The notes below the pieces were generated by a model. That model had not been told where the DNA came from and searched no databases. It saw only the letters and a program-made list of their open reading frames with translations. From assembly GCF_036365525.1 (NCBI RefSeq), contig NC_090407.1, forward strand, positions 23,278,084-23,342,083: a DNA stretch of 64,000 bases, read 5' to 3'. Both the position numbers and the translations under genes were made by a program. Origin of the DNA: Heterodontus francisci. Lineage: Eukaryota. This document shows, one piece after another, positions 4,389 to 53,103 of this stretch. Position 1 is the stretch's first letter; each line of letters opens with the position of its first letter.

Positions 4389-4617
4389 CTGTACTGTTTG
4401 ATGCAGATGAACAGCTACCACTTTCTTCATGCAGTCCTTTATCATCTGAGAAGTAAAGAAGTTTGTCTCTCCTTTCTTATCAACTGTAATCTTCCTATAA
4501 TCTTCTAAAAGGATTGGACAAATGGCTTTTGTAGGGTGGGTCATGTATATAGGACCATCGTAGCCAATCATTTCACTCATGTAAGGAAGGGCACCGCAGT
4601 GGTCCAAGTGAAAATGA
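4389..4617 (-). CDS. INTS11: INTS11 coding exon 4 ([12 protein letters not shown]...HQTVQ)
   Basis: 229-nt exon inside ORF 4338..4649; HxHxDH metal-binding motif; cag acceptor and GTAAG donor. Confidence 0.97.
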
Positions 4618-14832: not shown

Positions 14833-15355
14833 GTTCATGAATAGTCTTGGGACGGCCTTTTCTTTTATTTCAAATGATGCTGTCACCAAAATCAAAATTA
14901 TGGAAAACTACAGATGTAGTGCAAATGGCCAGAATTATCTAACAATTCAGTCAATGGTGAAGTACGAGGTAGATCACAAGCTTGTGGATCTGAAGATGCG
15001 GGGTGACCACTCGGATTCTGGCTGCCGTACACTTCTGCGACTCCATCGTGCCCTCAGGTGGCTGCAGCTCTTTCTGGAGAAGCTCCAGGTAGCTTCTGAC
15101 GATAGCAAAACTTCCATTCTGTGTACAGAGGCCTATCATGACTCTCTGGCAAACTATCATCCCTGGATAGTACGCAAAGCTGCAGCTGTTGCCTTTTATA
15201 TGCTGCCAAGCCGAGCAAGCTTCTTTGAGATTATGAACATGGGCCCAACAGAAGAGGTTGTGGCTATACTGGAAGAAGCACTGCCACTCATTTCAAAGAC
15301 TTATGACATCACACAAGACCTATATACTCAACACGGTTTGCTTGATCTTCCTTAA
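14833..15355 (+). CDS. CPTP: CPTP coding exon 2 (GLTP fold)
   Basis: tctttag acceptor; FMNSLGTAFSFISNDAVTK...SGCRTLLRLHRALRWL...YHPWIVRK...LLDLP*. Joined CDS is 642 nt = 213 aa plus stop. Confidence 0.97.
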
Positions 15356-21020: not shown

Positions 21021-22022
21021 TGAGATGACATCTACACAAGGGACCGCATGTCCCTCTGGAAGATGCTATCTCTGACCATGTAGCACTCCTTCAGTGCTAC
21101 ACTGAAGTGTTAGTCTAGATTGTGTGCCCAAGTCCTGTATTGGAGTTGAACCTATGACCTTCTGACTCAGACAGGAATGCTGATAATTGAGCCAAGCTAA
21201 CACCACAAGACCTCTTCTATTTGATCATAGAACATAGGATCCCAGAACACTATGTTTTGGTCATCACTTAACACTCAACAAACACAAATGAAACATTGTC
21301 TTGTCATTTATCTCACTCTTGTTTATGGAAGCTTGCTGGGTGCATATTGGCTGTTGTGTTTGCCAACATAGCAACAGTTACTATATGTCAAAAGTAATTA
21401 ATTGGCTGTAAAGTATTTTGGGATGCCAAGCTCTTGAAAGGCACTATAGAAATGCAAGTTTCTTTGTTAGTTTGTACTTGTATACTTGCTAGCAATGGCC
21501 ATGGGATAACAGATAGATGCCCTGGCTGACTTTTTCCTTCCCCTAGCTGAAGCATCCTGAGACAGATAGTAAGATCTCTATCTCTATTCTTCCTGAAATC
21601 AGTTACCTCATCCCAGACTAGGGATCTAGGGTCTTCCTGGTCTGGTCTATATATCTTAATAACACACTGGGTGATGTATTTATGCAGTAGGTCATTAGCG
21701 GATCTGACAATCAATTATTATTGTGCTTCTTCATTTAACAGTAGATCTGCAAAGATGTTGTGGTAGCGGTTATCTTTCCCTAACTCTGGCATGAAAATCT
21801 TGTTAGTCTTGTGAACCAGAACTTATACACTTAACAAAAGTTTTTTTTGAGAAGTAAATGTTCTATCAGAGTTTACAAATTATTACAAAATTGGGAGATT
21901 AGTGTGTTGGAAAACAGGACAATAAACATAAACATTCCCAAACGATGGAGATGACGAAGAATAGCAACTTTTTACCTCCCAACCTTTGATCCTCAATGAT
22001 CTATGACGTTTTCATAATTTTT

Positions 22023-28651: not shown

Positions 28652-28777
28652 GTCAGTAATGTAGTGTATAGATTTCTCCAGTGTAGTTGATTTGGAGGTG
28701 TTGAATTTGAATGCATTCACCATTTTAATCGATTGGGAGTTATGATGTGGAACTGATATTAATCTGCTGTGTTGTAG

Positions 28778-29745
28778 GAGTGGCGGGAATCCTGATGGAG
28801 AATGTGCAGCAATCTGGCTCTGATTCTTGTTCTGCAGAGGCTGCCGAAGATGGGAGTGCTGCGCCCGTGTCCCAGCCCCGCAAGAAACCCCGGCACTACG
28901 GCCAAAAGCGTTTCATCTGCAGTGAGTGCGGGAAGAGCTTCAAGCAGTACTGCGACCTGAAGCGGCACGGACGGGTGCACACGGGCGAGCGGCCGTTCCG
29001 GTGCCCGCCCTGCGGCAAGCGGTTCAGCACCTCCTACAACCTGCTGATCCACCAGCTGGTCCACAGCGGCGAGAAGCAGTACAAGTGCCGGGTGTGCGGC
29101 AGGGAGTTTGTCCAGCTGCACCACCTGGTCACCCATCAGCGCACGCACACGGGGGAGAAGCCCTACCCGTGCCCAGTGTGTGGCAAGGCCTTCCGCCAGT
29201 CCTCCACCATGCTGGTGCACCAGCGCATCCATGCCGAGGAGAGGCCCTACCGCTGCCCTGAATGCACCAAGAGCTTCAAGACATCGTCCAACCTGTCCAA
29301 GCACAAGCGCATCCATGGCGGCGAGCGGCGTTTTGCCTGCGAGGTGTGTGGCCGGCGCTTCCTCCACTCCCACCACCTGGCCACACACCGCCGCACGCAC
29401 GTCGGCGAGCAGCCGGCTACCTGCCCACTCTGCGGCCAGTGGTTCGGCAACCCAGACCAGCTACAGGCGCACAGGCGGGTCCACGCTGGCGAGCCGCCGT
29501 TCAGCTGCGAGACATGCGGCAGGGGCTTCAACCAGCGCTCGACGCTGGTGCGGCACCGGCGCACACACACAGGGGAGAGGCCGTACGCCTGCCCGATTTG
29601 TGCCAAGGCCTTCCGGCAGACCTCCACCATGCAGGTGCATTACCGCACACATTTTGACGACCGGCCCTACTGCTGCCTGCAATGCGGCAAGGGCTTCAAG
29701 AGCGCGTCCAATCTAATCGGCCACCACCGTGTCCATCGGAGGTAG
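28778..29745 (+). CDS. C2H2 zinc-finger protein, terminal exon with 10 tandem fingers
   Basis: ORF 28747..29745; ten CxxC-x12-HxxxH units with TGERP/TGEKP-type linkers; NLS-like PRKKPR; gttgtag acceptor ending at 28777. No KRAB, SCAN or BTB domain seen. Confidence 0.93.
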
Positions 29746-32394
29746 AACACTCAACGTCTGCGGCCACAAGACAGAGACTGGAGCCATCCCACCCACCCCA
29801 CACAGCATCTGCATTGGACAAGACTGTCGTCATTAGCTGCAAGCATCAAGTGACTTTAAGCCAGGGGAGATTTTTAAGTTAACAGATAGTAATTCACACA
29901 GTCAGGGCATTCTTGTGAAGCATTGCAGTGACAGAAATGATGCATTTTGATTTAGTGGCTATCTCTTTAAAACTCAAGTCATTGTGCTTTGGGAAATTTA
30001 ACAGCCAGCTAAAGGTCTTGGATCAAGCCTATCTTGATACAGCCGTGTGAAGTTTCCCCACTAACAGGCTTGAGATGAAGTTTTAATGCACAATTTTCAA
30101 ATACATACAAACTTTGTGATCTGATGCAATTGTAATTGAGTGTCTAGTTTTCAAAATCTGTGAAGTCCTGATCACCTTTTCCCAGGATATGCAAAAGGTT
30201 CTTCTCTGCTCAAAATAGAGTTCGCTGATGGAACATTCCATGAGAAAGACTGCGGGGATTCAGAGAAGCAAAGAGAACATGGGTTGATATTCCTGAAAGT
30301 GAAGAGAAACACTGTATTTAAAAATCATTTGCAAAGGATTAATTTAGCTGATAGGGTTACAGTCTTTTGTTATTTTGTCGATTTAGATTAAATGTGTTAT
30401 TGTCGATGTATAACTTCACTATTAGATTATGCTGTTTATTTGTGTAATAATTTCACTTTGTATTTTGAACTTATAAGCATGATCTCTTGTGATGCTGTAT
30501 TGCTTTTGAAAACTGAAGTATGATCATATGGTGCCATAAGATAATCCAGTACCTAAAAACTTACCGATCAGGGTTAGCTGTTCAGCTGCATGTTAGCAAA
30601 GGCTTACTGGGATCTCAGACATGGAAGAACACTCATGGTTGGAACTTGAGTGTGAGTGATCAAAGATATGTGAACCAAATTAATGTATGGAAAAAACCTA
30701 AAACATAAATCCTAAAAACATAATTACTGTGTTTTTTTTTTTGCAAACTTGCTGTTTTGTGGACCGAACCCTCTGATGCTGAGCCAATTCTAGTGTTGCC
30801 CAAACTGGAGTCAAGTTTTCTCAACACAAATCAGGGATTGATTCTGCGGCTTTTCTTGGCTGGGATTTATCAAGTCTTGCAGGACCCATTTAGGGGAAGT
30901 GCTGTCCATTCTGAATCCCTATGAAGACTATTTTACTACAGCAGAGTAAGTGTTGACATGATGTAACATGGAGACTGCTCCTCCTCGCACCAGATGTTTC
31001 TCGTGTTTTATGTTGAAGGAGGTTGAGCACCTAGCCCAGTGTTGGAGAGCATGTGGTATGTGAAGGAGCATGAAAGGGGCCAGAATGAGACAGGCAGCAT
31101 GTTGCTGCTCCAGAACACTGCAGCAAAACATCTTGCAACATGGATTTCAAGCCTGTGGAGACACACTTCTTTCCTGCCTGTCTAAAAACAAATGATCTGT
31201 CATATGGTTGTGGTTGTTTTGTGCTTATCAAGATTGATCATATATAGCACCAAGCACTTGCAGGTCAGGTATAGCACAGTTAAAATGCAGAGTAAAGCTC
31301 CCTATACCAAAGCTCCATACAGTATACTTCAACTCCAGGCCTAGAGGAGCATTTTTCCTGTTTCCCATACCATCCATCCTTTCCCATGCCAACTATCCTT
31401 AGATTTGAGTGGCATTGCCAATTAGTTCCAAGTTAAGTTAGTTTTGTACTGTAGGTCGATGTCCATTAGAAGCTGGCTTGATGACTGCTCGAACTCAATT
31501 TGGCCAGCAGAGCGGAGACTTTCATTCCATTGGTATGGTCTGGATTTGAGTCCACATCCCAGAGTTGAAAGGGTCACTTTCCAACTCAGTCCATCACCCA
31601 GTCACTCCTGCATATTGCTGTCTTACTGGGGAAGTTCCATAAAAAAGTTTATTACTGAGGCCTGTGTATAATCAACCTGTGGGTATAAAATGAAAATTCC
31701 ATCACTATTTAAAGGCAAAATCACTCTTCCATCTCAATAAGTGAATGAAGATCTTTAGATAAAGTGACTGGAAATTTCCTTTACTCTTTACAAAGACACG
31801 CCTACTCTCATTTGGCTGTGACTACGCTGAACGCAATTTCTGTGTAGTGGAATTAGAATTTCCCATGAAAAGCCACAGAACTGATTGACTTTCTATAATG
31901 CAGCTATTTTCTGTATGTGTTGAATATTCCTGTTGAACATTTGCATTAACTTTCCATTTTTTTGGATGTGGGTAGAATAGTATCAACTGGTGCTAAATTA
32001 CTGTAAAACTTCTGTACTGAGTAACATTTGGAAACCATAAACGCCTCTGTGTAAATTTTCAGTATTATAGATAATATTTCCCATAATTTAAGTGGGCAAT
32101 AGATTATGTACCAAATGTTCATCATGATTATCTATTTAAGCCAATATTTAATTACTAGTGTATGTCACAATATTGCTCACAGTAAGTCAGAGAATACCCT
32201 GTTTTGTCATAGCAGCATTTCACCATGTTTAAGGTTACAACGCAGTGCTGCTTCCTTGGTATTGCTTAGGGATTTGTATAGATTGGGCTGCTGGATGGGG
32301 TGGGGGTCGGGGGTGGATGGTGTGCAAGGTCAGTGCTCAGTTGGGTAAAGTGGGTGCTTTAACAAAGCTTGCTCCTATTTTACATAGAAAGGTA

Positions 32395-33331
32395 CCCTTG
32401 CTTTTCCTGATCTATATTAATGACCTAGACCTTGGTGTACAGGGCACAATTTCAAAGTTTGCAGATGATATGAAACTTGGAAGCATTGTAAACTGTGAAG
32501 AGGATAGTATAGAACTTCAAAAGGACATAGACAAGTTGGTGGAATGGGTGGCAGATGAAGTTCAGTGCAGAGAAATGTGAAGTGATTCATTTTGGTAGGA
32601 AGAACATGGAGAAACAATGTAGAATAAAGGGAGTGCAGGAGCAGAGGGACCTGGGTGTATATGTGCATAAGTCATTGAAGGTGTCGGGACAGGTTGAGAG
32701 AGCGGTTAATAAAGCATGCAGTATCCCGGGCTTTATTAAAAGGGGCATAAAGTACAAGAGCAAGGAAGTTATATTGAACTTGTATAAAACACGAGTTCAG
32801 CCTCAGCTGGAGTATTGCATCTAGTTCTGGGTGCTGCATTTGAGGAAAGGCGTGAGGGCAGTGGAGAGAGTACAGAAACGATTCACGAGAATGGTTCCAG
32901 GGATGAGGAATTTCAGTTATGAAGATAGATTGGAGAAGTTAGGACTGTTTTCCTTGGAGAAGAGAGGGCTGAGAGGTGATTTGATAGAGGTATTCAAAAT
33001 CGTGAGGGGTCTGAACAGAGTAGATAGAGAGAAACTGTTCCCACTCGTGAAAGGATCGAGAATGAGATGGCACAGATTTAAAGTATTTGTTAAGAGAAGC
33101 AAAAGTGACATGAGGAAAAACTTTTTCATATAGCGAATGGTTAAGGTCTGGAATGCGCTGCCTGAGAATGTGGCAGGAGAAGAAAATTAGACAGTTAAGT
33201 GAAAAGGAAGAATGTGCAGGGTTGTGGGGAGAAGGCCAGGGAATGGAATTGAGGGAGTTGCACTTTCAGAGAGCCGGTGCAGACATGATGGGCCGAAGGG
33301 CCGCCTTCTGCGCTGTAACAATTCTGTGATT
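32395..33331 (+). mobile_element. CR1 LINE 3' portion
   Basis: LFLIYINDLD...KFADDMKL, ERVQKRFTRMVPG, RGDLIEVFKI; tail ...acaattctgtgat. Confidence 0.9.
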
Positions 33332-34855: not shown

Positions 34856-37590
34856 TAGGAATATAGGAGTAAGAGTAGGCCATTCAGCCCATCGAGCTTG
34901 CTCTGCCATTCAATTAGATCATGGCTGATCATCTACCTCAACACCACTTTTCCGCGCTATCCCCATATCCCTTGATGTCATTAGTCTCCAGATATCGATT
35001 TCTGTCTTGAACATGCTCAATGATTGAGCTTCCACAGCCCTCTGGGGTAGAGAATTCCAAAGATTCAACACCCTCTGAGTGAAGAAATTCTTCCTCATTT
35101 CAGTCTTAAATGGCCTACCCTTTATTGAGATTATGTCACCTGGTTCCAGACTCACCAGCCAGGGGAAACATCCTGTCTACATCCACCCTGTCACGCCTAG
35201 TAAGAAGTTTGTAAGTTTCAATGAGATCATCTCTCATTCTTTAAAACTAGAGAATACAGGCCCAGTTTCTGCAATCTCTCATCAGAAGATAATCCCGCCA
35301 TCCCAGGGATTAGTCTGGTGAACCTCCGTTGCACTCCCTCTATGACAAGTATATCCTTCATTAGATAAGGAGACCAAAACTGTCACAATACTCCTGATGC
35401 AATCTCACCAAGGCTCTATACAATTGCTGCAAGACGTCTTTACTCCTGTACTCAAAACCCCTTGCGATGAAGGCCGACAAACCATTTGCCTTCCTTATTG
35501 ACTGTTACACCTGCATGCTAGCTTTTAGTGACTCCTGAACACGGTCACTTTGGACATTTCCCAACCTCTCACCATTTAAGAAATATCCTGTCTTTGTTTT
35601 TTCTACCAAAGTGGATCACTTCACATTTATTCACATTATAGTCCAAGCCATGTTCTTGGCCATTTACCTCATCTGTCCACGACTGCTTGTAGCCTCCTTG
35701 CATCTTCCTTACAACTTACATTCCCATCTAGTTTTGCAGCATCAGCAAATTTGGAAATATTACATTTGGTCCCCACATCCAAATCATTTATATAGAATGT
35801 GAACAGCTGTGGCCCTAGCACTGATCCTTGCGGCACCCCACTAACAATAGCCTGCCACCAAGAATGACCCACTTATTTCTACACTCTGTTTTCTGTTAAC
35901 CAATTCTCAATCCATACCAGTGTATTACCACCAATCCCGCGTACTCTAATTTTGTTTACTAACCTGTGTGGGACCTTATCAAAAGCCTTCTGAAAATCTA
36001 AATACACCACATCCACTGTTTCTCATTTATCTATGCTGCAAGTAACATCCTCAAAACTCCAAGAGGTTTGTCAAACATGATTTCCCTTTCATAAATCCAT
36101 GTTGACTGTGCCCAACTTTACCATTGTCTAGTTATCACATCCTTTATTATAGATTCTAACATTTTCCCTACTACTGACATCAAACTAACAGGTCTGTAGT
36201 TCTCCATTCTCCCTCTCCCTCCCTTCTTAAATAGTGGGGTTACATTTGCTACTTTCCAGTCTGCAGGAACCTTTCCAGACTCTAAAGAATTTTGAAAGAT
36301 AACCACCAATGCATCCACTGTCTCTACAGCCACCTCCTTCAACACTCTGGGATGTAGCAGATTTATCAACCTTCAATCCAGTTAACTTTTCAAGAACTAC
36401 CTCTTTACTAATTTCTTTCAGTTCCTCATTTTCATAATTCCCTTGTTTGCCTCGTATTTCTGGGAAATTTTCTGTATCTTCTTCCATGAAGACAGACACA
36501 AAGTAATTGTTTAGTTTCTCTGTCATTTCCCTGTTCTCCACTCTAATTCTCTGTCTCTACCTGTAATGGGCTCACATTTGTCCTTGCTAATCTTTTCCTT
36601 TTCACATACCTAAAGAAGCTTTTACAGTCCGCCTTTATGTTTCTCACTAGCTTGCATTCATATTCCCTTTTCCCTTTCTTTTTCAGTTTCTTGGTCATCC
36701 TTTGCTGGATTCTAAATTGCTCCCAATCCTTCGGTTTACCACTTTTTTTGGCATCCTTATAAGTCACTTCCTTTGATCTAATGCAATCTTTAACTTTTTT
36801 GTTAGCCATGGTTGATTCACCTTTCTTATTGGGTGTTTCTGCCTTAGAGGAATATATATCTGTTGTAGACCATGTAATAGCTCTTTAAATACTAGCTATT
36901 GTCTGCTTCACAGTCAAATCTTCAAAGTATTTCCCAATCCACCATACCCAACTTGCCCTCCTTCCTCATGGTTTCTTTTGTTCAGATTTAAGACCCTAGC
37001 TTCAGAATGAACTATGTCACATTCAAACTCAATGTGAAGTTCCATCATGCAGTCACAATTTTCCAAGATTATTAATTAGCTCTTTCTCATTAGATAATAC
37101 TAAATCTAAAATAGCCCAATCCTTGCTTAGTTCTTCAACATACTGCCCCAGAAACCCATCTCATACACACTCCAGGAATTCATTCTCCACTGCATTACTG
37201 CCGATTAGGTTTACCCAGTCTATGTGTAAATTGAAGCTGCCCATTATTACTGTATTACCCACATTACATGCATCTCTAATTTCTTGATTTACACTATGCC
37301 CAACATTACCATTACTGTTTGGTGGCCTCTCAACCACTTCCACCAACGTTTGCTGCCCCTTGCAGTTTCTTAGCTACACCCAAATGGATTCTACATCTTG
37401 ATCCTTCGATCTAAGATCCTTTCTCACTAATGTACTGATCTCGTCCCTTATTAACAGCACTACCCCACCTACCCCATACCCATCTCTTGTTCCTTTTTGC
37501 CTAACCTTCCTAAATGATGAATATGCTTGGATATTCATTTCCCAATATTGATCACCCTGTAGCCAAGTCTCTGTAATGGCAACTAAATTA
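34856..37590 (-). mobile_element. CR1 LINE, decayed ORF2 from endonuclease to tail
   Basis: ORF pieces RPPNS...GSFN, NYRPVSLMS, GVPQGSVLGP, KFAD; tail at ~34860. Confidence 0.9.
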
Positions 37591-40499
37591 TGGCTAACAC
37601 AACAAAATATTTATATATTTAAGGGGCTTAATGTCGACACCTAAAAAAAAAAAAATTAACAGTGGGCCCAACACCTGCATAGTTTGGACACAGGCCTCCC
37701 CACTGTCACATACAAACTAGGAGCAGGAGTAGGCCATTCGGCCCCTCAAGCCTGCTCTGCCACTCTCTAAGATCATGGCTGATCTGTTTGTAGACTCAGC
37801 TCCACTTTCCTGCCAACCCCCAATACCCTTTGACTCCCTTGTTTGTCAAGAATCTGTCCACCTCTGCCTTTAAAACATTAAATTGGTATACGTCATGCCA
37901 ATGTATGTCAATTTCTACTTCAAATAGTGCAACGTGCAAGATGAATTCTTTAATGCCCCTCTTTCTGTTGAATCTAGTTTCAGTTAGCTAGGCTGTGGTG
38001 ACTTGGCTAATGTTCAGAATTTCCTGACTATCAGAATTTCAGAAACCGCTGTAGTTCTCAGACTACCAGACACAAAAAGAACACACTTACTCACTGTTAC
38101 CTTTGGTGGTTATTACAATGGTTAAAGTTTGGTTTCTGAGATCAAGTGCATTACGTTTGCAGTATTACTGAGCTTACTGAGCCTTACACTTGAACCTACC
38201 TCGTTTTCCCACGGTGCTACCTAGACATTTCTGGACCTGGCACCCCCTTGCTTCCCCCACATTCAGAACAAGGAGCGCAAAGTAACACTGAATGGAATGA
38301 GAAGTCTAGAACTGCCTTTTTGTAACACTGTACGGTTATTTGTTTAATAATCGACACACTGCAGTTTGAGAGATATTTAACAGATTTTTTTATTTCTTAA
38401 AAAACATTTTTATATTACAGAAATATAGTGCAATTGACAAACAGGATACAGTCTCTACTGGGAAATTATAGACAGCTATTTTTTTTCTCTTAAATATCTC
38501 ATTATCTCAGTGTTAACACAGCTGGCATTCACTGGCTTCTTGGTAAATTAAAAATGCTCTGCTTACCAAAGTAAAATCACAAAGCCTATGAAAAGCCCAG
38601 AATTCCTTTTCTGTAATATCATTGTCATTTAACATTTTATATTACATTACACATCCAAAGCATTCTTAAAACATCACAGTAATAAATTATATACAGTATA
38701 TATCATTGTACATCTTACAAGCATCTTAGAACCACTAATGCTGGCTGAGGTTTTGATTGCACTGTGATTAAATGAGGATGGGGAGGGTGAGCGTTTCACG
38801 AGAGAGGAAGAACAAAGGCAGTTCCAACACCAATCACTGCAGCCTTCACTAACTCTACTTACTCATCCCTTTGTTGTCTTTCAATCCAAACTCAACTTTT
38901 GCTGTCCACTTTTCAGTCAAATCTCAACCCATTTTTAATGTCCTCGACTCCTTACAAGCCCTTTCTTTACTTGTTGCTATTTATTCTTTATCTTTCTATT
39001 TCTGCATGCGGAAATACTGAAGCAAAGTATGAAATAATTCTGCAATTCCCATATCGAGTATAGCCTCACCATGCTGAGTGCCCCATCGTCTCTCCTTTTT
39101 TAGCTGTAATTTTCAGCCTAACCTGATTACTCATTCTAAGAGCTACAAACCTTGATTCAGGCCGTTTTTCCTCCCTGAAATGTTTCTAGACTGTACTGTG
39201 CTTTTCTGACATTTCAGTATTTCCCAATAAATTTTATCCTCCAATTTATCAAGGCTCAGCCCTCTCTTCCCCAATCAATTTGTTTTGATTCTCTGTTTTT
39301 TCCGCCTCTAGTGTAATGTTAAAGCAAAGGAGGTCATAATCACAAATCCCTCATTTTTCTGTCACCTTTATGCTGTTCATTGCCTAGAACCACATTCAGT
39401 GCTGCATCTTTCCTTATAGGACTTGTAACATACTGCCATATAACAGCTGAAGTAAAGCCTACCATGACAGCGCTGTAATACATGTAGCACTTTATAGCCA
39501 ATGAAGTACTTTTAAGTGTAGCTACTGTTGTAATGTAGGAAATGCGGCAGCTAATTTGCACACAGCAAGCTCCCACAAACGGCAATGTGATAATGACCAG
39601 ATAATCTGTTTTTGTGATGTTGATTGAGGGATAAACATTGGCCAGGACACTGGGGAGAACTTCCCAGTTCTTCGAGATAGTGGCCTGGAATCTTTTACAT
39701 CCACCCGAGTGAATGGGGCCTCTGTTTAACATCATTGATGAGAGAGGATGAGACTGTGTCTTCAGGAGGGAGGGAAATGATGAAAAAGATATTTAAAAAA
39801 AAAGTTTTATATTAGTGAGCCTAAGAGCTGAGTCAATAAATTCTCCACGATAAAAAAAAACTAGAGAAAATTATAATTAACCGTGTCTTCCTTACGAGAT
39901 CCTAAACCAAACAAATGTTCACTTGAATGGTAATTATACAAATTGGTAGTTGGACCTACTAAAACATCAGCCTAAAGTATTCTTTCATTATGAAACGGGC
40001 AAATGGAAAACGGTGATTGTCTCCTTACTGGGAGAAGTGGCAAAACTGCAGAAATTAGAAAAAACACAATGTTTGCGATTGGTTTAAGCGTCCGACCACC
40101 AGAACTGAGGAACTTCAGGATTTGTTTGTTTACATTACCTAGTATGTAAACTTCACAGTTTGGTCTATGAAATGGCCTCCATAGAAGAACCTTGTGGATA
40201 GGAATGCTTGACAATTAATGGCTGAAAGCAAGAAACTATAGGCACTTATTCTAAAAGACTATCTCCATTAATGTAATGAACCAAAAATGCCATTGAATGT
40301 TTTATACGGCCATAAGCCAGTACCGCACCCAGGTTTATATAAACAAGGCACAACCAGAAGCAGCTACTTGATATAATCCCATTTAAAAGCACACCACTGC
40401 GTGAGCTGGTAATGGAGTGAGGTAGGAATAAGTGGAAACAGTACTTTCACAACAGGAAATTTGACTAGAGTAGGAATTCAGAGGTGAGCAGGAGTAAGA

Positions 40500-40773
40500 A
40501 GAAAGACTTGCATTTTTATAGTGGCCTTCACAAGGTCAGGTTGTTGCAATATGGGAAGTGTGGCTGCCAATTTGTGCATATTAAAGTCCCACACACACAA
40601 ATGCAGTAATGACCATGCAATCTGTTTTAGTGATGTTGGTTTAGGGATAAATGTTGGCCAAGACATCAATGTCCTTGTTGAGACCTCCCCTGCTCTTAAA
40701 TTAGTGCCATGGCATCTTTTACATCCACCCGAGAGGACAGACAGGACCTCCACTTAACCTCTCATCTGAAAGA
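40500..40773 (-). mobile_element. DeuSINE/SacSINE1-like SINE, head missing (other copies ~39485-39735, ~47900-48185, ~21290-21460)
   Basis: Shared body gataatgaccagataatctg...gagggataaa.attggcca repeated across the copies; the family name is from recall. Confidence 0.65.
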
Positions 40774-41016
40774 GTAGTTCAGAATATTGCAGGTTTTCTT
40801 GTGTATTTTACCCTCTTTAACCGAACTTTAGTCTTAAATTTGTGCAACTGATAGTGAATTGGCAGCTAGTTAGTGAACATTAGTTACTAGCTAGATGTGA
40901 ACCATCTGTGTAGTTGGGCAGACTGAGTGCTGAAAATTGGTTTGTGACCTAATCTGTCGGGACTATAAAAAGAGAGGTAGTATCAGGGAACCGTGAGTTC
41001 AAGTAAAGATTGCACT

Positions 41017-42400
41017 ACAGATAGAGTGATTAAGAAAACAGTAAAGAGTATTTTACATCTTCCATCGGAGACTGCTGATGGTTTGTTATACTCTAAAATG
41101 AGGAATGGTGGACTAGGTTTACCAAAGTTAGAACTACAAATCCCTGCAGCTATTATTAAAAAGTGGTCGAAGATGGAGCTATGGACGGATCCAGCGATAA
41201 AAGCCTCGTTTTCGTTTTGTGGGATTAATTTAAGAGATAAAATTAATCTCGAGTGAACTGAAAGTATTGAAAGAAGTATTAGGAATGGATGGAAAAAGGA
41301 TCGACTCCATGGAGAGGGATGATTCCAATGCATTAATGGAAATTAACGAGATGGATGGCCAGGAGGATGCGAGCGAGGAGAGGACGAAATATCGAGATCC
41401 TTATATAAAATGGAGAGATGCTGAATTCTGGAGATGGTCCCGATTACATTTTCAAGGAGTGGGAATTTCCTACTTTTATGACGACCCATTATCGAACAAA
41501 TGATTACAATTCAACACAATGAAACAATCTGCATTTCTAAAAGCCCTCCAATTAAGGACCAATACATTTCCAACGCGTTATTTCCTATCTTTGGGTAGGG
41601 AGAACTACAATAAGAACTGTCGGAGATGCGAGGTTCCTAATGAGACGCTGCCACATATACTGGGGAGTTGTATGTCGATGCAGAGATACAGGATACATCG
41701 ACATAATAAGATCGTGGATTTGTTGAAGGATAAAGTGGCAAAGGAGGGCTGGAAGGTATATGTGGAACCACACTTCTGAGATGATGAGGGAAGACTATGG
41801 AAACCTGACCTTATATTTACGAAAGGTCAGGATGTTGCAGTGGTTGATGTAACAATAAGGTTCGAGGACAATAATAGATCTTTAGAGAACGCTTGGGACG
41901 AAAAAACAATGAAGTATAAACACCTAGAGACAAGAATTGCGGATTTTACTAAAAGTTTCTATGGATTTGTAATTGGAGCCCGGGGGAAATGGCTTGTAGC
42001 CAACAATACCTTGTTGACTTTTTTACGAATTTAGAATTTTAAGACCTTTGCCAGCCAGGTTTCACGTCTGACAATTGGACTATCGTTGGACATTTTAAAG
42101 GACTTTCTTGGATTTTAAAATTTTAAATGTTATATTTTAATGTGTACTGTTAAAATTGTGATAGTATAATTTAATAATTTTAAGGTTTACAGTTTTAATA
42201 ATAAAGTTTATGTTTTAAATAGTAGAGGAGGAGAGGCAGGGTAAGACTAATCAGAGCGGCGGTATAAACCCAGTAATATTACGAACGATTATAGTCTCAA
42301 TTTTGGGATTACGTGATTATGACTTCTTCATTCCCCTTTTTCCCGTTACACTAATGATGACATCGAGGCCGGACTTGGAATTGTGGACGTCCCACTTAAA
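41017..42400 (+). mobile_element. R2-clade non-LTR retrotransposon remnant (thumb, CCHC zinc knuckle, restriction-like endonuclease, 3' UTR); RT core absent
   Basis: LHLP...LLYSKMRNGGLG; WRDAEFWRW...QG; ALQLRTNTFPTR; CRRC...HILGSC; RHNKI; EPH...KPDLIF...VVDVTIRFE...EK..KYKHL; GFVIGARGKW. One frameshift (~41250), in-frame stops at 41501, 41777 and 42032, terminal TAA at 42116-42118. The 3' boundary is approximate. Confidence 0.88.
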
Positions 42401-45400
42401 AAGACGAAATGTACAGATTTTGATCAATCTGTCTTAATGCTGTTTATCAGAGACTTTTACAACAGGAATTTGGATAGAGTGAAAATTTAAAGCAGAGGGA
42501 CAGGATGAGCAGAGTAGTTTAATTCAAATTTAAGCAAAGGTTAGAAACGTAATTATAACATTGCCATTAATACGTGTGGTTCTTACAGGAGTGGCAGTTT
42601 CAAGCAGCAGATATTACCCGTAAACCTTTTGTTTAATCGCTGACTTGAATATTACAGCAGTCTTTTCATTAAACTCAGCCAGATGACAAATATACTAGTT
42701 GAGTTTCTTGTCCAGATAAATGTTGCAAAGCTAAATACAAACTAAACTCTCCAGCAAATATTGGAGCTGTTAAAGCCTAAATGCGATCCAATAAAATTTC
42801 ACACGAAAAACCTGCAAAACAGATTTGTTTCAAAAAAAAAATGTAAACATTAACGGTTCTGAATCCAACTAAAGCTATGGGATAAGCATTTTTCAGGTCA
42901 CTGTGTAATGTTGGAAATGTTTGTGAAGATTTCCTCTGTTCACTATTTCTAGCCAAATTGTAAGCCTATTATTAAAACAGTTATCAGAGAAAACCTTTAC
43001 TGACTGGTACACAACAGTTTCTTCACTAAACATAAATTGATAGAGGAATTCTTACTCCTATAATCGTCTAGTCTAAGATGCAATAAATACATAGCAATTG
43101 TTACCCTGTGTTCATACAAGGCATTTTAATGAAAAAAATGTAGTGTGAAAATTTCCCCAGAGCGGTATGTTTTTGCAGTTTTCATAACTTATTTGCATGA
43201 AAAACTGCATCAGTTGGGATGGACCACTATATAAATCCACTGTCTTCCTATTTTCCTATCCTTCCATTACAGATTTAATCTGGTTTTACTTTCTACAGTA
43301 TTAACTTAATTAGATGTGTTTTGCTCGGGTACTTGTTATGTGTGCTGCAATATATTATAGGCTCCGCAACATATTCCATAGAGCTTTACAGCATGAAAAC
43401 AGGTCACATCGTGACTGTGCTGGCTCTTTACTAGAAGAATCCCAAATGAATCCCACTGCCCTGCTCTCTCCTCATAGTGTTGCATCCAACTTCCCTGCAT
43501 ATCAGAGTTATAGTACAGTCAGCTGGAATTTCAAGCTTGCACAACATTGCACAAAGCAAGACATCCTGTAACACATCCGCTGAATCTCTACAATATACTG
43601 CAGTTTTTATAGAAAAGCTCCCAGAAGCAGTGAAGATGTCAGTCTCAGTGATCATCTGTCCAAACTACAGTTTATATGACCTTTCCTCCAGTTATTTAGT
43701 TTAAAACATTTGACTGCGTTTTCTTGGCTTCTAGTTCATTTTCCCTGAGAGTTTCACATTACTGCATTTTTGTGATTTTTTTGTTGTTGCATTCAGCATG
43801 TTGCCCCAGGAATTGGAACACCTTCCCATCTTAACCACCTTGCATTGGCATGGAGCACTCCCCAACAAGTGTAACCAAGGAAACGTCCCTTTAATCTACC
43901 CAACAATATGCTTCAGACCCAACCTTGGAGAGCAGCATCCCCACTGAACATTTTTCCATTTACCATACTATGCCTTAATTTATTCGCAGCTAGTGCTGAA
44001 TTAGGGGCAGTGTTATGCTCTAAACCTATACGGACAGGAACCAAACTTATTTTGCATAGAATCCTTATAAGCCCTAGCCATTCTCATCATTACTGCAGCC
44101 CGTTTTCAAACTCAGAGCCTAAGGCTAAAAGCTTGGTGTGTTAGCCCACTGCCGCACCCAGCACTCTTTCATATTTTGCCCTTTCCTCACTGTGTGTGTT
44201 TCTTTGTCATTGTGTTCCTGATTTCCAAGATGTTGATAGCCGTCAGGGTTGGTGCATGAGGATTAGCATTCTGAGAAGAATTCTCCCAGCACCCACCCCC
44301 AGGCTTCCACTAAGCTATCTAATATTGAACAAGCTTATTTCTTATTGATGCGTCGATTATGAATGAAGACATTTGTCCAACTAATTTTGAGAAGTAAACT
44401 GTTATTCAATAATGGCTGGAGGTGTAAATATTTTGTTTCAAGATTTAAGGAGAATACTGATCTGATGGTAGGTGCAGCCCCTTAACTTTAGACAGCACAA
44501 ACAACAGGACAAAACACAAGTTTACAGCATCGCCCTAGCTTCTACCATTCACACCTATTCACACATCTTGCACTCAAATTCCAACATCGGACTAAAACAT
44601 AGAGGCGCCTACATTGAAAACCTGAAGCCTTCGCTCAGGTTTCTCAAGTGGTTGAACGGCTCTTGTACTTGCAGTGGTGTGCCAGAGGGATGGAGGTAGC
44701 GCTGTCCCAGGAGGACCACAGACCTCTTTGTAAATTCAGGGAAAAGTAGTGACAGACCTGTGGCGATAACCACGAGCCAGTGCATCACGCACCCCCCCCC
44801 CCCCCCCCGCTGACTAAAAGAGGAGCAAACCATCTGAGAGTTCAATTTTTAAACAATGTTACTAAAATTTACTTTGCCAGTGTAATTAATTGTTGACCAG
44901 ACTAAAAATAACTGATGTAATAAACTATTTCTGAGCTGTCCATTTCCTCAGTTAAGCTGTGAGACCTAAAGGAAAGATGCAGACTCTTTAGGCCAGGACC
45001 CTGAACAGAAATAGGACAACCAATGAGAACATTATTCCTTAAGGAACCGATGGTTATTAAGCCATTTTTTCATCCTTCATTTCTACATTGAAAAATAAAT
45101 CACAACAGAAAGTTTACCCGTTCTCTTTGAGCACTGAAATAGTATTCAAGCAACCAAATAAGAGAAATAGTATACATTTGTTCCCGCTATATTTCTCGGG
45201 TTCTTTGGCCAGCCTCAGAAATGTATGGAGGTCTATTGGCAAATAATGTACAGAACTTGGAGTTAAACCTATTTATAATGAGGCTCCATGAAAAAAGTGA
45301 TACTGCACAATGTCTGCAAGACTGACTTTGTTGAAGATTAATGAACAGATTTGTTCTTCATTTCAGGTAAAGGCAGCAATCTGTAAACTTGAAATCAATT

Positions 45401-45426
45401 AAAGGCCCCGCCATACTGATGACTGG

Positions 45427-45518
45427 TCAGTTTTTTACTTGCACTGATGTGATATCCTCGGATTCTTCCTGCACAGGATCCTTTACGTCTTGTTTGATCC
45501 AGAAACACCGATTGAAAT
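45427..45518 (-). CDS. TNFRSF4: TNFRSF4/OX40-like receptor, last exon (cytoplasmic tail DFNRCFWIKQDVKDPVQEESEDITSVQVKN*)
   Basis: ttacag acceptor, phase 1; PVQEE TRAF-binding motif like OX40 PIQEE; no death domain. Confidence 0.75.
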
Positions 45519-46584
45519 CTGTAATTACGATGCAGTAAAATTCCATGTTAATTACAAGCTGCGACTATCAATTGATTATAGATGAAAAGGTTACTCATTA
45601 AGTTTGTTTATTCATTTCTAATTGGGCTGTTACTTTCTTCAAATTCAGTTAAAACTGTGCTGGATAGGTGCAGAATCCAGGCGCAAAAGATTGCGCTGCA
45701 GAACACCTTTCAAACTAGGTTGGAAAAGACATGAATGGCACAAATGTTTCAGCTCAGCTGCCTCTTCTTTCTACACAACTGTCAGGCTTCCTTGTAACAG
45801 CGTTAAAGGCTTCACCATTATAGGTGAATCCTGCCAGTGTTTGCTGAGGCTTCATTTTTTTTTAAAAGCAGCTTGGGTTCCATTTAGAATCACAAGCAAG
45901 GTATTATGTGGCAGTCCCCTATTCAATACCTGTGTAATATCATGAGTTTGCTTAATTGCATTTAACAGGTTAAACTTTTCAGAGAGGAATTTCAAGCTCC
46001 CCCCCCCCCCCCGTTTATCATCCCCATAATTAAAAAGATTTAGCATGTGTAGTCTTGAAATGCTTTGCTCTGCTGCAGAGGTTAGCACTCTCTACGCACA
46101 GGTATGCTTTACCACTCCACTTGTTTATCCATCTCAGGTTCTCAACTGGCTTCATTTAGAAAATGTTAATATGGTTTATACCATCCAATACTTTGCTGAT
46201 TTATAACACGAGTGAATGGAATTGCAATAATGCAGGAACTTGAGATCTGGGCATCACATGAAACACAGAGCATCCAAGTATGCCATCAGGAATTAGAGGT
46301 CAGCTTTCCGGTGAAGTACAGAGAGTGATGCAGATCCTAACTCTACGACAGTAGTTGGTTAGAACATCACTTTGAAATTCATGAAGCAACTAATTATCAA
46401 AGTAAAAGTTGGAGAATAGACTTTGATTCCATTCCGTCCCCACTGAAGAGCCTCCAGGATTCTCTCAGCTGGCTTCAAATTGTTTTTATATTTATACTAG
46501 TGAAGCAGAATAACATCGTGAAGCAGATAAAGAAAATAAAATGAAAGAAAAGAATGAGGTCTTTCAAAGTTTCTATTTCCTCAC

Positions 46585-46695
46585 CTCGGTTTGCCATTCC
46601 AAAGTGTAATTTTCCTCTCTTAATCAAGACAATGAGAAAAATCGCAACTGCCACAATAATGCATCCAATATAAAATGTGGTTCCTGTTGCCCTGC
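46585..46695 (-). CDS. TNFRSF4: TNFRSF4-like transmembrane exon (GRATGTTFYIGCIIVAVAIFLIVLIKRGKLHFGMANR)
   Basis: 111 nt, tttag acceptor and GTGAGG donor; hydrophobic helix followed by KRGK stop-transfer. Confidence 0.8.
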
Positions 46696-47082
46696 CTAAA
46701 GGGAAAAGAGAGTGTGATATTGAAGTAGTCTACAGTTCAAAATTTTCAATATCCCAATGCTTTCATTTGTTATTTACTAGTACTTTGAATACCATGGAGG
46801 CAACAACAACTGGCATTTATACAGAGCCATTAGAACATAAATAGGAGCAGAGTAGACCATTCAGCCCTTCGAAACTGCTCCACCATTCAATATGATCATG
46901 GTGGTTCTTCTACTGTCCCCATATCCCAAACACAAAGGACTGCGGTAATCTAATGTCTTATGGATCGTTCGTTGATTGTTATTTGCAGAACAAGGTAGAA
47001 CCTTTAATAATACAAAATCCAGGATGCTTTACAATTCCCTCATCTCAATCTTCTCCCAACTTCTGAAGGCATTTGGGAGAGA

Positions 47083-47465
47083 TGGTGACGTAGTGGTAAT
47101 GTCACTGAACTAGTAATCCAGAGACCTAGGCTAATGCCCTGGAGACATGAGCTCAAATCCCACCATGGCAGCTGGTGGAATTTAAATTCAATTAATTAAT
47201 TAAAAATCTGGAATTGAAAGCTAGTCTCAGTAATGGCGCCATGAAACTATCAATTGTCATATAAACCCACCTGGTTCACTTTGGGGAAGAAAATCTACTG
47301 TGCTTATTTGGTCTGGCCTACATGTGACTCCAAACCCACAGAAATGCGGTTGACCCTTAACAGCCCTCTGAAATGGCCTGGCAAGCCTTTCAGTTCAAGG
47401 GCAATTAGGGATGGGCGACAAATGCTTGACAGCGAAACTCACATCCCGTGAAAGAATAAAATAAA
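47083..47465 (+). mobile_element. tRNA-derived SINE, same family
   Basis: Colinear with 25455-25815; a partial copy also lies at ~11250-11440. Confidence 0.8.
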
Positions 47466-48654
47466 ACTCAGCTAGCCCACCTTCATATGTAGTTAAGCAT
47501 CGCAAGGTGCTTCTCAGGAGATGTTAGGGCAGGTGACCAAACATTGGGTCAAAGGGCTAGGCTTTAAAGCCTTGAAAGGAGGGAGAGGCGTAGGCAGCAA
47601 ATTTCTTAGGGCCGAGACAGTTGAAGGCATGGCCAACAGTGGTGGAATGAAGGAAACCATGGGTGCACAAGAATCTTGGAGCACAACTGTGAATGCCCAT
47701 ATATAACTTGAAATGTGCCTCTGGTGGCACATGTGCTGCACAGTGTGGCTGTGAATCATAGAAAACACAAAGCTCCCTGTTTCTACACTTGCCTGCGTGT
47801 CCCTTGCCCTTGATCACTGTCCAATGCCATTTGCTTGTAATGCTGCAGATGCAACACAGCTGCAGCTTGCTCTATCCTAGATATAATATCCCGTCTTTCG
47901 AATGAGAGGCCTTGTCTACCTTCTTAGGTAGCTGTAAAAGATCCCATGATACACTTTGAAGAAGAGCAAGGGAGTTCTCCCTGTTGTCCGAGCCAATATT
48001 TATCCTCCAACCAACATCCCTAAAACAGATTACCTGATCATTATCTCATTGCTGTTTGTGCACAAATTGGCTGCTACATTTCCTACATGATAACAGTGAA
48101 TACACTTCAAAAGTACTTCATTTGCTTTAAAGTGCTCTGGGGCATCCAATGGTTGTGAAAGGCGTTATAGAAATGCAAGTCTTTTTGAGTGGGGCACAGA
48201 ATTAGACTCAGCTGATGTTGACCCCAAAGGTGTTCAGCCAACTGGCATTCCCATTTCAGACTCCTGCATAAAGACGAGCCAATTGTGGACAGCTGCCAGC
48301 ACTCACGCAACAATCTGTTTGTTCAGCTCACTCCCTTCCAGGAAAAAGAGAAAGAAATCCTAGGCCGGGAATTTGCTCAGAATTGCTCCTGCTGGAAGTA
48401 TGGCTGGTGAGCCCCGTTTCTACCCATGAGCAAAGTTATTGCAGTGTAGTGGGAAATCCATGGCCCTGGTGTTTAATGTACACAATGTTAACTATAAAGG
48501 ATGGAGACCATTCAAAACCTTGTTCATCATAAAAACAATATAGAAATCAAATTACTTTCTTTAATATTTCAAAGGCAGTGGACCCATATGACAGAGACGA
48601 GGCAGAATGTACATTGAAATAATGTTTAAGCACGAGTCAGTCATTGACACTAAC

Positions 48655-48845
48655 CTGGTTTGTCTACTGTTGTTACTGAAGGCGTTCTCACTGAGGTACT
48701 GAGCACTGTTGCACTGGACGTAGTCGCAGGGTTAGGAGACCTTCCTTCAACTGTGGTGGTCTTTATAGTAGAGATGGATATGCCACATTCTGCATCCTCT
48801 GTACGTGATCCATTTTTAATTAAATGTTGTCCTTTTGCTTCACAA
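48655..48845 (-). CDS. TNFRSF4: TNFRSF4-like exon: end of CRD4 plus Ser/Thr-rich stalk
   Basis: 191 nt inside ORF 48650..48901; SCEAKGQHLIKNGSRTEDAEC then a mucin-like stalk; atatag acceptor, GTTAGT donor. Confidence 0.8.
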
Positions 48846-48941
48846 CTATATAAAAAGAGTCCATTGTTGCAATAAGTAAAACATGTGGGACTAAGCATCA
48901 CTCAAAAAGCTAGTAAAGGCACAATGGGCCGAATGGCCTTG

Positions 48942-49028
48942 TTCTATGATGTCAGTTTCTATGATGTCAGTTTCTATGATGTCAGTTTCTATGATGTCAG
49001 TTTCTATGATGTCAGTTTCTATGATGTC
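48942..49028. repeat. 15-bp tandem repeat (TTCTATGATGTCAGT), 5 perfect units plus 12 nt
   Basis: Directly visible; preceded by the CR1 tail remnant atgggccgaatggcc. Confidence 0.97.
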
Positions 49029-51559
49029 TCTGCATTGAAAGAGGTAGGTCTGCTGATTGATCAATGCATTACATTATAACTGTGGAATGAACAGTCTCCA
49101 TGGGGCTGCTCGGAAATAAGCTCAACACATTGTAACATGGGAGGGGAGAGCATTGAAATAACACAGAATGGTCAAGACTCACAACTGGTCACTTACCAAT
49201 TATTGGGGAGAAGCTATATACATTATTGAATTGAACATGACTTATGAATATTTGACTTATTGGGAGCTGTTGATTGCATTCAGTCCTCTCACTTGGTCAA
49301 AGGCACCATAAGACTTGAGTATAGAAACCCAATATTACTGGTTGAAAAGCTACACACTTCCTAAAAGGGTACATTGATCTTCTGTTAGTCTTAGCAGCAA
49401 CTACAACATATTTCAGTACAAATTTCAGCACTTTCATACAGCAAACACTACAGGGCAGATTTTCCTCTCCTGTGTGACTGGGGAACACTCTGCCTACAGG
49501 TGTAAAAAGGGGTGAAGACCTAATATGCCCCCATTATGTTATAGGAGATTTTAAGGGTTTCAACAGGTACAAACAAAGGGCAGCCATGCAACTGAGGGGA
49601 TTAGGCCCTGCAGAAACTATGCAGTGCAGGCAGCCAAACTGACAGCAGGCTGTGTCTTGCACCCACTCCTGGTCAGAGTATCTGATAGGGGCATGTGAGA
49701 AAGCACTGAAGGTTTTAAACGATAAATGTTACCTTCCTTCACAACCACCACCCACCCCAAGATACCCAGTATTAAAACTCAGACAGCCAGGCAGTGAAGG
49801 ATGGAATACTGGAGCCAAGATCTGAGTTACATATCATACACCAACAACCACACTTTCAGTCTGCTCCTATATATACACATGAGTACAGGTGAGTCCCCCA
49901 ATTAATGCCCACCACCTGATTACAATTAAGCACCCAATTAATTTACAATTAACACCCAGTGGATCCCCAAGACTGAAGGCCTTTAAGGTGGTGGCCACGG
50001 CTGCTGCAACAGTGGTTGGATTTCCATTTCTGAGTCTAGGCATGGTCCATGGCCAAGGAGCAGGACCTGGAATACATTGGACCCATATAAAGAGCAGAAC
50101 CCAGAAATAGAGGCAGTTTCAAGTACCCTCTGCTTGAATGGCACTTATATTGGTAGGGTGACAGGGGTGTAATTCAACCCTCATGATGATGAGGAAGCTT
50201 ATATGCAGCTCTTGTGGATCACTTGATAAAGGCAGTGTGCAGCTGAGCCACACAGAGCCTTTCCAATTGGTCTCAGTCAGAATGACATTGCAGGCTCAGT
50301 CGAGCCCAATGCCCTGAACTAAAGAGGGAAAAAACCTGGCACAATTCCTAACCATTGATCTCTTCTGGAAAGCATGCATATGTGGACTTTGGGTGAGGAC
50401 AGAAACAGTCACGATCATATTCCATCCACGTTTGAAAGCCCACTGATATTCACTGGCTAGCTTCACATATGAAGAAAGGCCACTTGAATGAGATATGTGG
50501 TAAGATGGGAGTTGGGACAAAGAAAAGTAAATAGTATCTATAGTTAGAGTTGGACTGAACTGGCTTGCATTGAGTTTGGGTGCTTATTTTTATACAATAC
50601 CTGTTGCAACATAGAAGTGTACAGAATTGGAAGAGACCGAACGAACTCAAAAAATCCCAAAGACAGCTTCAGTGTATTAATCTACTGCTCATACATTTAA
50701 ATTACTTACTCCCCCAAATAGCTATTCAGTCCCCTCTTGAAGACATTGGCACTATCCATCTCCACAGTCTCTCAGACATTTGTTTCACATATTCCACATC
50801 CAATGTGTGAAATAATTAAATCTAAACTGATTACAGACCTCCCCTCTATTGAACTTGAGCATGTGCTCCTTGTATAATTTGTGACTGTCAGCACATTATT
50901 ATAGTTCAATTTATCTTAGATTGAGTATCTGAAGATTTTTCCTGACCTTTCCAGTGTAAAATTACCAGTTTCTGTAGCCTTTCTCCATACCTCAGGTGCC
51001 TGATCTATTGTATCAATTTACCTGCCCTTCATTGTATTTTTTCCAAAGCTAGCATGCACTCCATGTTGTAACCCGCCCTAAACTATGCACAACCTTTTAC
51101 TAGTACTTGACAGGTCTGAGAAAAAAAGCCACTCCAAATGACAATCAAGCAGCTTATCTGTTTAACCCTTTTATGAACTGATTCAAAGCTACTGCATTAG
51201 AACTGTCTACAACCATTAAACTGCTGTCATTGTAAAGAACTATCTGTGAATTGGTAGTTTGGAAGTGTTTGATACTAACTATCCGTGTAGGTGCTGTCAG
51301 TCTGTAATGGAATCCTGCATATTAACCCAGAGACAGTAAATGGATATTTCCTCAGGACTGGCTATGCTGGATTACTTTCCATACTAGCTTTCACTCCAGT
51401 TCACATGGAGTGGGAACGCTTGTTTGTGGGAGCTAATCTTTGTGTTGAGCCAGAGAAAAGTAGCTGGTGGGACCCTGAATCCCAACACACCACATAGAGA
51501 CTGCGCTGCCTTCAAACAGACACATATCAGTTACAAAGCTGTACAAAAGTTTCACGTAC

Positions 51560-51641
51560 CTTATCCAAGGTTTGCATGGTTTATTGTCTTCATCATCTGA
51601 ATAAAATCCTGGTTTACACGGCTCACAGCTGTGGGGGTTTC
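51560..51641 (-). CDS. TNFRSF4: TNFRSF4-like exon (GNPHSCEPCKPGFYSDDEDNKPCKPWI)
   Basis: 82 nt, catag acceptor and GTACGT donor; CxPCxPGxYS...CKPW cysteine-rich-domain motif. Confidence 0.85.
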
Positions 51642-53103
51642 CTATGAATAGAAATAAGATTAAAGTGACAACACAGTTAATCACAATTGCAAGCAGATGA
51701 CTAGTTTCCAGTTAACTGATTCATACCTCATGATGAGCTTAAACATGCAATTAAAGACATTTTGAACAATTGCATGTGTGACAGCTTCACCTACAGCGAA
51801 GGGATTTTACTTACGTAAAAATTTAAAGAGCGGGTTTCACCACTTTTTCACTCCTTTCAAAAAGCAGTTACAAAGAATTATATTCCCTAGCATTTTGTCT
51901 TCCTCCACTGTTTTCTGCTGATATTTGTGAACAATTCTGTTTCAGACGAAACCATTCCAATGAAAGAATCTGTGTGGCAAACTGTTGCTTGTTCATTTGT
52001 AAGCACGTGATATGATAGTATAAACCCCCTTCGCTTAATGTCACAATAAAATTGGCACATAAGCCTGTTGCTCTTCAAGCAAAATCTTTGGCCCAAATGT
52101 TTTTTTATGCCCTTTTAACAATCAGTGTTGGGGAGACCCATTTCCAGTTTACAGGTTGCTGCTAGTTAGTCAGTAGGAGTCCATTGCAATTGCGATGTTT
52201 CCATTCCAGACATAAGCACAAACTGGCATTTGCTGGTCAGGGTTCATTGTAAGTGTACTCCTGTCAGCTTATCACAAACCAATTATTGATGATCATCGAA
52301 AAACATCCTGAATGGGAACAGTTGACTATGGGAACATGCCCATTCATCGTGTCATTGGAACAAGAGTTTCATATAGCCACATCAGGGGCAGTTTTACTGA
52401 AAGGCCTACTCTCATGCAGTAAATAAGGGGCAACTAAGAAGCAACTTGCATATAGATATCTTTCCATTATATTCAGGATTGTCTAACAATTCAGATAAAT
52501 ACACTTATTATTTAAGTACCTCAACTGTACCTAAATTGTACCCAATGGGACAAGAGTACTTTGATTCTTATTGTTACCTTGTAAGTGCTGGAGATGGAGT
52601 TGGGTCATCTTCTGGGCTCAATAAAACTGATGATTCGCAATGGTTCCAATTGCAGTTTATCTTAATTTAGGCCCCTATTCTCAAAATGTTACCTAAGCTG
52701 CTTAAAATCTGCCTAGAAATTGCTGAATTTTCTGTCAGTGGGATACTGTACTGCAAAATACAGATATAGCTACTGCTGATATATGCAGCCATGGAGTGTG
52801 AGCAGTGGAGGTGCATTTCTGACCAAAGGGGTCAAAAGGCCTACTTGCAGGAGTGACCAGTGACACTGAGCCCGGAGAGATTATCTACCAAAGATCCATG
52901 AAATATATAATAGCTATCAGACCATTAGCAACACCAAGGCAATGGCTGCTTGGGAGAGGATGGTTGACATACAAGAAGTATTGACAGAACTTCCCTCTTT
53001 GCCTGATTTAAGTTAGTACTATAAGAGACACCAGGCCTGGTAATTCAGATGATTCTTGCTGTTTTCTTTTGTTGCAATTTATCAAACGTTAATAGTTTCA
53101 TAC

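Follow-up and report, generated by a model that had tools for sequence, protein, structure and literature searches.

A dead, 5'-truncated R2 copy outside rDNA in Heterodontus francisci, probably an off-target insertion of a 28S-targeting shark lineage-A R2

The window analysed here, a stretch of 64,000 nucleotides of Heterodontus francisci contig NC_090407.1, contains four genes which we take to be INTS11 (4338-4673, minus strand), CPTP (14762-15355, plus strand), a single-exon C2H2 zinc-finger gene (28729-29745, plus strand) and a gene of the TNF-receptor family (45420-51711, minus strand). This order presumably resembles that of human 1p36.33, and both the family assignment and the reading of a TRAF motif in the gene segment at 45420..46730 are our assumptions. 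Four fragments, at 8168-8890, 22021-24219, 32233-33265 and 36118-37610, are presumably CR1/L2-like LINEs, and that at 22021-24219 keeps long open endonuclease and reverse transcriptase (RT) frames. The R2 copy lies about 3 kb past the stop of the TNF-receptor-family gene, antisense to it (Table 1). As the original prediction had stated, no 28S sequence flanks the copy: Rfam at gathering score gave no match in the whole 64-kb window, neither rRNA nor U2, and at thresholds up to E 10 the region 39000-44500 gave seven weak, chance-level matches, none of them to rRNA. A SINE had also been placed beside the copy, but the immediate 5' flank (40770-41021) is single-copy, and a SINE-like repeat is found further up, at about 40540-40750.

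Table 1. Coordinates, strand and supporting evidence of the R2 copy, its insertion site and the neighbouring gene (positions in the window).
Feature	Position	Strand	Evidence
Old local paralogue of the target region	40414..40500	+	Local alignment score 72-74 vs window background 24 +/- 7
5' junction microhomology, 2-3 bases common to target and element	41019..41021	+	Empty-site contig aligns through 41021
ORF remnant 1, thumb/linker after the RT core	41020..41250	+	tblastn with P0003; frameshift near 41246
Target site, 13 bases GTGAGGTAGGATT of organism B lost here, no target-site duplication	41021..42449	+	Empty-site contig
Whole insert, 5'-truncated R2 copy, 1427 bp	41022..42448	+	Organism B contig joins 41021 to 42449
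ORF remnant 2: linker, CCHC zinc knuckle, restriction-like endonuclease and stop codon, with 3 premature stops	41258..42118	+	
3' UTR, AT-rich first half, about 2 bases short of the family 3' end	42119..42448	+	
TNF-receptor-family gene (presumed): transmembrane exon (about 46730-46600) and last exon (PVQEE, stop near 45420)	45420..46730	-	

The insert is a tail piece of about 1.4 kb, with 365 codons (41020-42115) on the plus strand that come from the C-terminal third of an R2 protein. P0003 (776 aa, from Logan), the most similar intact protein found, aligned by tblastn in two pieces, 41020-41247 at 58% identity (P0003 residues 408-483) and 41258-42106 at 49%, and since these lie in different frames the copy contains one frameshift, located near 41246, where related contigs have two extra bases. 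Within 41234-42115, a segment that reads as 294 residues with X at the stops, codons 90, 182 and 267 (about 41501, 41777 and 42032) are premature in-frame stops, and near 41954 there is a 12-base in-frame gap relative to related contigs. The copy shows the motifs ALQLR..PTR, KPDLIF, VVDVT, KYKHLE and GARGKW as well as a CCHC knuckle; the RT catalytic core, the DNA-binding domains and the 5' UTR are missing. Against solved R2 proteins, phmmer gave E values of 2e-53 for PlaMe (9nl2), 3e-53 to 4e-53 for R2Tg (9nl3 and 9dou) and 9e-10 for R2Bm, so that a C-terminal CCHC knuckle and restriction-like endonuclease of R2 type are present (E 2e-53 to 4e-53); Pfam gave zinc-binding matches below threshold only. 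The CpG observed/expected ratio is 0.83 in the R2 ORF versus 0.30 across the window. The tblastn pieces, the translation and this ratio bear out the original prediction of about 365 codons covering thumb, CCHC knuckle and endonuclease, with one frameshift, three stops and many surviving CpGs. Its extent, given as 41017-42400, needs correction, as the insert runs 48 bases past 42400 and bases 41020-41021 are common to element and target.

A search with the C-terminal region of P0003 yielded 80 proteins, with shark proteins at the top. Trees were built on the C-terminal 365 residues only, with no named Utopia/NeSL row and no named non-R2 outgroup among their rows, and P0021 was left out of the careful tree because its match was too short. 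In this careful tree of 26 rows, the copy falls in an eight-row clade (support 100/98) with five shark-named and two other proteins, as sister to the other seven; the coelacanth row and one turtle row come next, and the bird, PlaMe and gar rows are on another branch. The quick tree of 78 rows agrees, placing the copy in a five-row clade with support 98. Within the shark clade the copy is on a long branch by itself, with 41-56% identity to the remaining rows. Placement outside R2 had been named beforehand as the outcome that would speak against the assignment, and both trees nest the copy among named R2 proteins. The assignment to R2 therefore stands, by phmmer (E about 1e-53) and by the grouping with known R2 proteins; the trees put the copy in a shark branch apart from the bird and turtle R2Tg-PlaMe proteins. 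R2Tg and PlaMe (9dou, 9nl3, 9nl2) are the best solved matches and belong to the same major lineage A, although PlaMe is only 36% identical over the region and the bird and turtle proteins are on a different tree branch.

The assignment of the shark branch to a lineage comes from P0005, a member of the eight-row clade, which shows three zinc-finger motifs at its N-terminus and matches the start of R2-1_CPu, a 28S-flanked element of Table S2 of PMC13188248 (both by eye). Lineage A is marked by three N-terminal zinc fingers plus Myb and by a 5' ribozyme, a region that the truncated copy lacks. Table S7 of the same source gives the label 'A' to a zebra-shark R2 with this type of N-terminus, and on these fingers and this label the branch is judged to be lineage A; an earlier placement in lineage D or C was replaced for the same two reasons. 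With R2-1_CPu the copy shares the clade (100/98), but it sits on a distinct sub-branch, at 41% identity over the region. Shark R2s at 28S are already published (PMC5035012, PMC13188248, as far as their available text goes), and the lineage-A elements of cartilaginous fishes, R2-1_CPu, R2-1_STig, R2-1_SAc and R2-1_SCa (Table S2 of PMC13188248) and R2Sqj (PMC5035012), have the same C-terminal domains as the copy in the sequence that these sources give. Twelve of the 13 cartilaginous-fish rows of Table S2 show the 28S target downstream, and the flank cells of the white-shark row are empty. That white-shark R2, of 1278 aa, has an AT-rich start that does not look like rDNA, and is possibly a near-full-length ectopic copy.

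The AT-rich 3' UTR shares AATAAA and short motifs (by eye) with the dogfish and bamboo-shark R2 rows of Table S2, as far as these rows extend; an exact search for six short motifs of the 3' UTR found none of them in the text of that table, whose cells hold up to 400 characters. The AATAAA could have signalled a switch to Pol II, an idea that was discarded because the 28S-inserted dogfish and bamboo-shark R2s have AATAAA too. According to the available text of PMC5035012, some bony-fish R2s carry 28S-derived sequence in the 3' UTR; the idea that the same holds here, which came from inspection by eye, was dropped as Rfam gave no support. Folding of three 3' UTR stretches under a pseudoknot-free model gave z values of 0.83 to 1.62 against shuffles, no signal.

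Junctions were analysed by aligning 40770-42900, from 80% likeness upwards, against four runs (X1, X5, X9 and X12) of 16; the raw-read run X12 gave only six aligned reads and was uninformative. A 1579-base contig of organism B aligns over 40770-41021 and resumes at 42449, skipping 1427 bases and showing 13 other letters between the two parts, which is an empty site. Over three aligned pieces, the flanks of this contig show 19 substitutions relative to the window in 689 bases (2.8%) as well as six gaps. Because this contig joins 41021 to 42449, the insert is delimited to 41022-42448, without target duplication. Relatives of the copy in X1, X5 and X9 first align at 41019-41020, and their sequence upstream of this point is still R2 coding sequence (compare P0006), so the copy is 5'-truncated at a microhomology of 2-3 bases. 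The absence of a target-site duplication and the 5' truncation with microhomology and target deletion (2-3 bases shared, 13 lost) are R2-type features, 5' microhomology and target deletion being usual at R2 junctions according to the text seen of PMC2718515. The local paralogue of the target region near 40415 keeps 12 of the 13 lost letters, a score reached by nine of 500 shuffles of the 13 letters, and its agreement with organism B supports the empty state as ancestral. This paralogue lies about 600 bases upstream, adjoins the SINE-like repeat, and has the AGG-TAG core and no insertion. In X5 and X9, which we guess to be RNA, long flat contigs cover both flanks, which may reflect read-through from the TNF-receptor-family gene or DNA carry-over.

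The relatives are about 83-85% alike to the window copy, differing at about 15-17% of positions plus gaps, and align as far as 42425/42437; beyond this they carry a terminal motif that is almost the same, followed by the 28S target. The X9 relative, from organism B, ends in ...GTTTATTCC followed by TAGCCA, the 28S target, and the X5 relative, from organism A, ends in ...GTTTATTCC followed by a 28S match with two of 13 letters changed. Both 3' junctions of relatives that could be read thus show the 28S target (before TAGCC), exact in X9 and decayed in X5, and among the readable junctions organism A shows only the decayed one and no intact one. The X5 relative, with its decayed target, likely belongs to an rDNA orphon elsewhere in the genome. 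The exact junction likely belongs to the deepest R2 contig of X9, at depth 428 versus 18 for the flank contig, an assignment made by length arithmetic (789-base contig, 379 aligned, 44-base side, 57-base loose end). Run X9 contains four or more separate R2-related contigs, with depths of 4.7, 21, 68 and 428 and a likeness of roughly 79-86% to the window copy, which suggests several R2 sub-lineages co-existing in one organism.

The window copy itself ends in ...GTTTATC followed directly by host DNA, complete to about two bases and with no 28S tail. Its absence from 28S rDNA follows from the lack of an rRNA match, the single-copy flanks and the empty site in a relative. The position of the 3' end at the family terminus without 28S sequence indicates an RNA template. 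A piece of R2-inserted rDNA could also have been moved as DNA by recombination, with later loss of its 28S flanks, and the decayed junction in X5 demonstrates that an R2 stray with a 28S tail exists; this is very improbable here, since a random break would rarely fall within about two bases of the element terminus and leave no 28S base. Still less credible is that the insert represents another element with a restriction-like endonuclease (Utopia, NeSL or R4) or an assembly artefact, and not R2. The trees contained no named Utopia/NeSL protein, but the copy is nested among named R2 proteins and its relatives, at about 83-85% likeness, end at the 28S R2 site, which effectively refutes a non-R2 element; the U2 snRNA or spliced-leader targets of Utopia/NeSL find no counterpart either, with no U2 match in the window and the relatives at 28S. 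Against an artefact, X1 and X5 contigs cross both junctions, although X1 may be the assembly's own data.

The preferred reading, to which we give a probability of about 0.8, is that the insert is a dead, 5'-truncated off-target insertion, outside rDNA, of a shark lineage-A R2 that targets rDNA. It is supported by the relatives at 28S in both organisms and by the empty site, and it corresponds to the first of two options raised in the original prediction, a rare off-target insertion of an rDNA R2. The second option, a lineage that has lost or changed its target, is left without support, as the readable 3' junctions of relatives are at 28S. Most likely, an R2 RNA would have left a 28S rDNA array, and it would likely have been reverse-transcribed into the non-rDNA site in one off-target event. 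The R2 protein would have nicked a weak mimic of its target, either the AGG-TAG within the 13 lost bases or the TAG at the 3' junction; reverse transcription, primed at the RNA 3' end, would have stopped after about 1.43 kb, and the cDNA would have annealed to the upstream strand through the 2-3-base microhomology. With no RT core, DNA-binding domains or 5' UTR, the copy would have been inactive from the moment of insertion, and it has decayed since.

The target resembles the 28S site in its core. The lost bases contain AGG-TAG in the orientation of the element, like the 28S nick site, and AGGTAG occurs in 224 of 127,976 13-base windows (0.18%, a post hoc figure). Around the nick, seven of 12 positions match the 28S target, which 1.5% of window positions equal or exceed (also post hoc), and of the four positions described as critical for R2Bm cleavage in the part seen of PMC10499050, three match and the T(-6) of the R2Bm motif is missing. 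The upstream recognition motif matches by eye at three of seven positions from -25 to -19, and lacks the T at -20 that the available text of PMC12222951 gives as typical of R2Tg off-targets. A nick at AGG-TAG requires the loss of seven downstream bases, which plain target priming leaves unexplained; the second TAG, at the actual 3' junction, leaves a discrepancy of one base only. A less probable but fair variant of the off-target reading is that the R2 RNA-protein healed a pre-existing DNA break without its own endonuclease, the TAG resemblance being chance. The loss of bases on both sides of AGG-TAG, the lack of duplication and the upstream recognition motif out of register would agree with this, but the AGGTAG within the 13 lost bases in the orientation of the element (0.18% of windows) and the second TAG adjoining the 3' junction argue for a nick made by R2.

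Similar strays are described in insects. Non-rDNA R2 copies are present in five Drosophila species among those examined (PMC2718515, as far as seen), and a non-28S R2 insertion of the silkworm is described by Xiong et al. 1988, as cited in the available part of PMC10499050. As far as these texts describe them, the Bombyx mori and Drosophila non-28S copies are, like the one studied here, rare and often incomplete ectopic copies at a target resembling the 28S nick site. The silkworm site has the nick-site and upstream motifs at the right spacing (PMC10499050, same part), whereas the present site has the core only; unlike the silkworm and Drosophila strays, the one studied here has its empty allele known from a related organism. 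The literature searched, with most subscription papers and Repbase lying outside that search, yielded no report of shark R2 inserted elsewhere than in rDNA, and two metagenome scans for related loci gave 84 and 14 pattern matches, none of them confirmed.

In X1, 63 pieces align to the element: 16 at 99% or more, four at 95-99%, 14 at 90-95% and 29 under 90%. The 47 pieces under 99% alike weigh against the preferred reading. Depths summed in X1 amount to 7-42 across the element and 4.3-4.9 across the flanks, roughly a few related copies and not a large dispersed family, depth not being equal to copy number. A second version, in X1 and X5, covers 41133-42293 and differs by about 1% over 977 bases (4% in one 167-base piece); it shows a 60-base deletion at 41621-41680 and lacks the frameshift, the 12-base gap and the third stop. 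This version is likely the other allele, or possibly a close paralogue. If it is the other allele, the insertion is older than the allele split and younger than the split of organisms A and B. The insertion probably postdates a split with a flank divergence of about 3%, in keeping with the description of the copy as fairly young, but the second version, about 1% different and with lesions of its own, suggests that the copy has been dead for some time.

Non-specific R2 families have been described, R2NS-1_SMed and R2NS-1_CSi, of two flatworms (PMC5035012), as have R2 homologues in Porifera (PMC13188248), both sources seen in part. These families share with the present copy an R2-type element outside 28S, but in the parts seen they consist of young copies (more than 98% to consensus in R2NS) at unrelated sites, whereas the readable relatives here are at 28S. 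The R2NS pattern, numerous young copies scattered over unrelated sites without any link to 28S, is not what was found, given these junctions and the low summed depth. The lineage-A shark R2s and the relatives of the copy are at the 28S site, the copy itself being outside rDNA, 5'-truncated and broken.

A further reading, which we regard as unlikely, is that a shark lineage-A sub-lineage has relaxed its specificity, keeping its 28S home and regularly inserting genome-wide at dispersed sites with little beyond the TAG core and no upstream motif. The several copies in X1 that are diverged and of low depth (of 63 pieces, 14 at 90-95% and 29 under 90%), the absence of the upstream motif at the insertion site and the long branch of the window copy are compatible with it, as are no fewer than four additional brownbanded bamboo shark R2 proteins on scaffolds of 52 kb-2 Mb, two catshark R2 proteins on scaffolds of 40 and 255 kb, one in a Mustelus ZNF gene model, and the white-shark row without 28S flanks in Table S2 of PMC13188248, as that row is given. 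Several long shark scaffolds carry decayed R2 proteins, and strays could therefore be commoner than the word 'rare' implies. These scaffold copies may, however, be rDNA orphons with 28S pieces, and the 28S target at both readable 3' junctions of relatives and a summed depth less than ten times the single-copy level argue against regular dispersal. R2 sequence is also found in the gene models P0007, P0008 and P0017, of an uncharacterized Mustelus ZNF, a turtle PDE3B and a myna enolase-superfamily protein respectively; these hint that other vertebrates, too, have R2 strays within or close to genes. A Parnassius butterfly gene model, P0084, of 2328 aa contains six identical tandem R2 C-terminal units.

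The preferred reading makes this copy an ordinary but well-resolved stray: a vertebrate lineage-A R2 went off target in the germline, at a site whose state before insertion can be read in a relative, and the locus provides a presence/absence marker for a species split. Lineage A is the R2 lineage used for gene insertion in human cells (background on R2 tools is reviewed in PMC13586686, seen in part), and the locus suggests that a weak nick-site match without the upstream motif sufficed on at least one occasion. The finding would gain greater importance only if such insertions were frequent in the shark sub-lineage. A leaky sub-lineage, if true, would represent a natural halfway state between site-specific and non-specific R2, and its empty and filled shark alleles would be a natural off-target map for vertebrate R2 gene-writing proteins.
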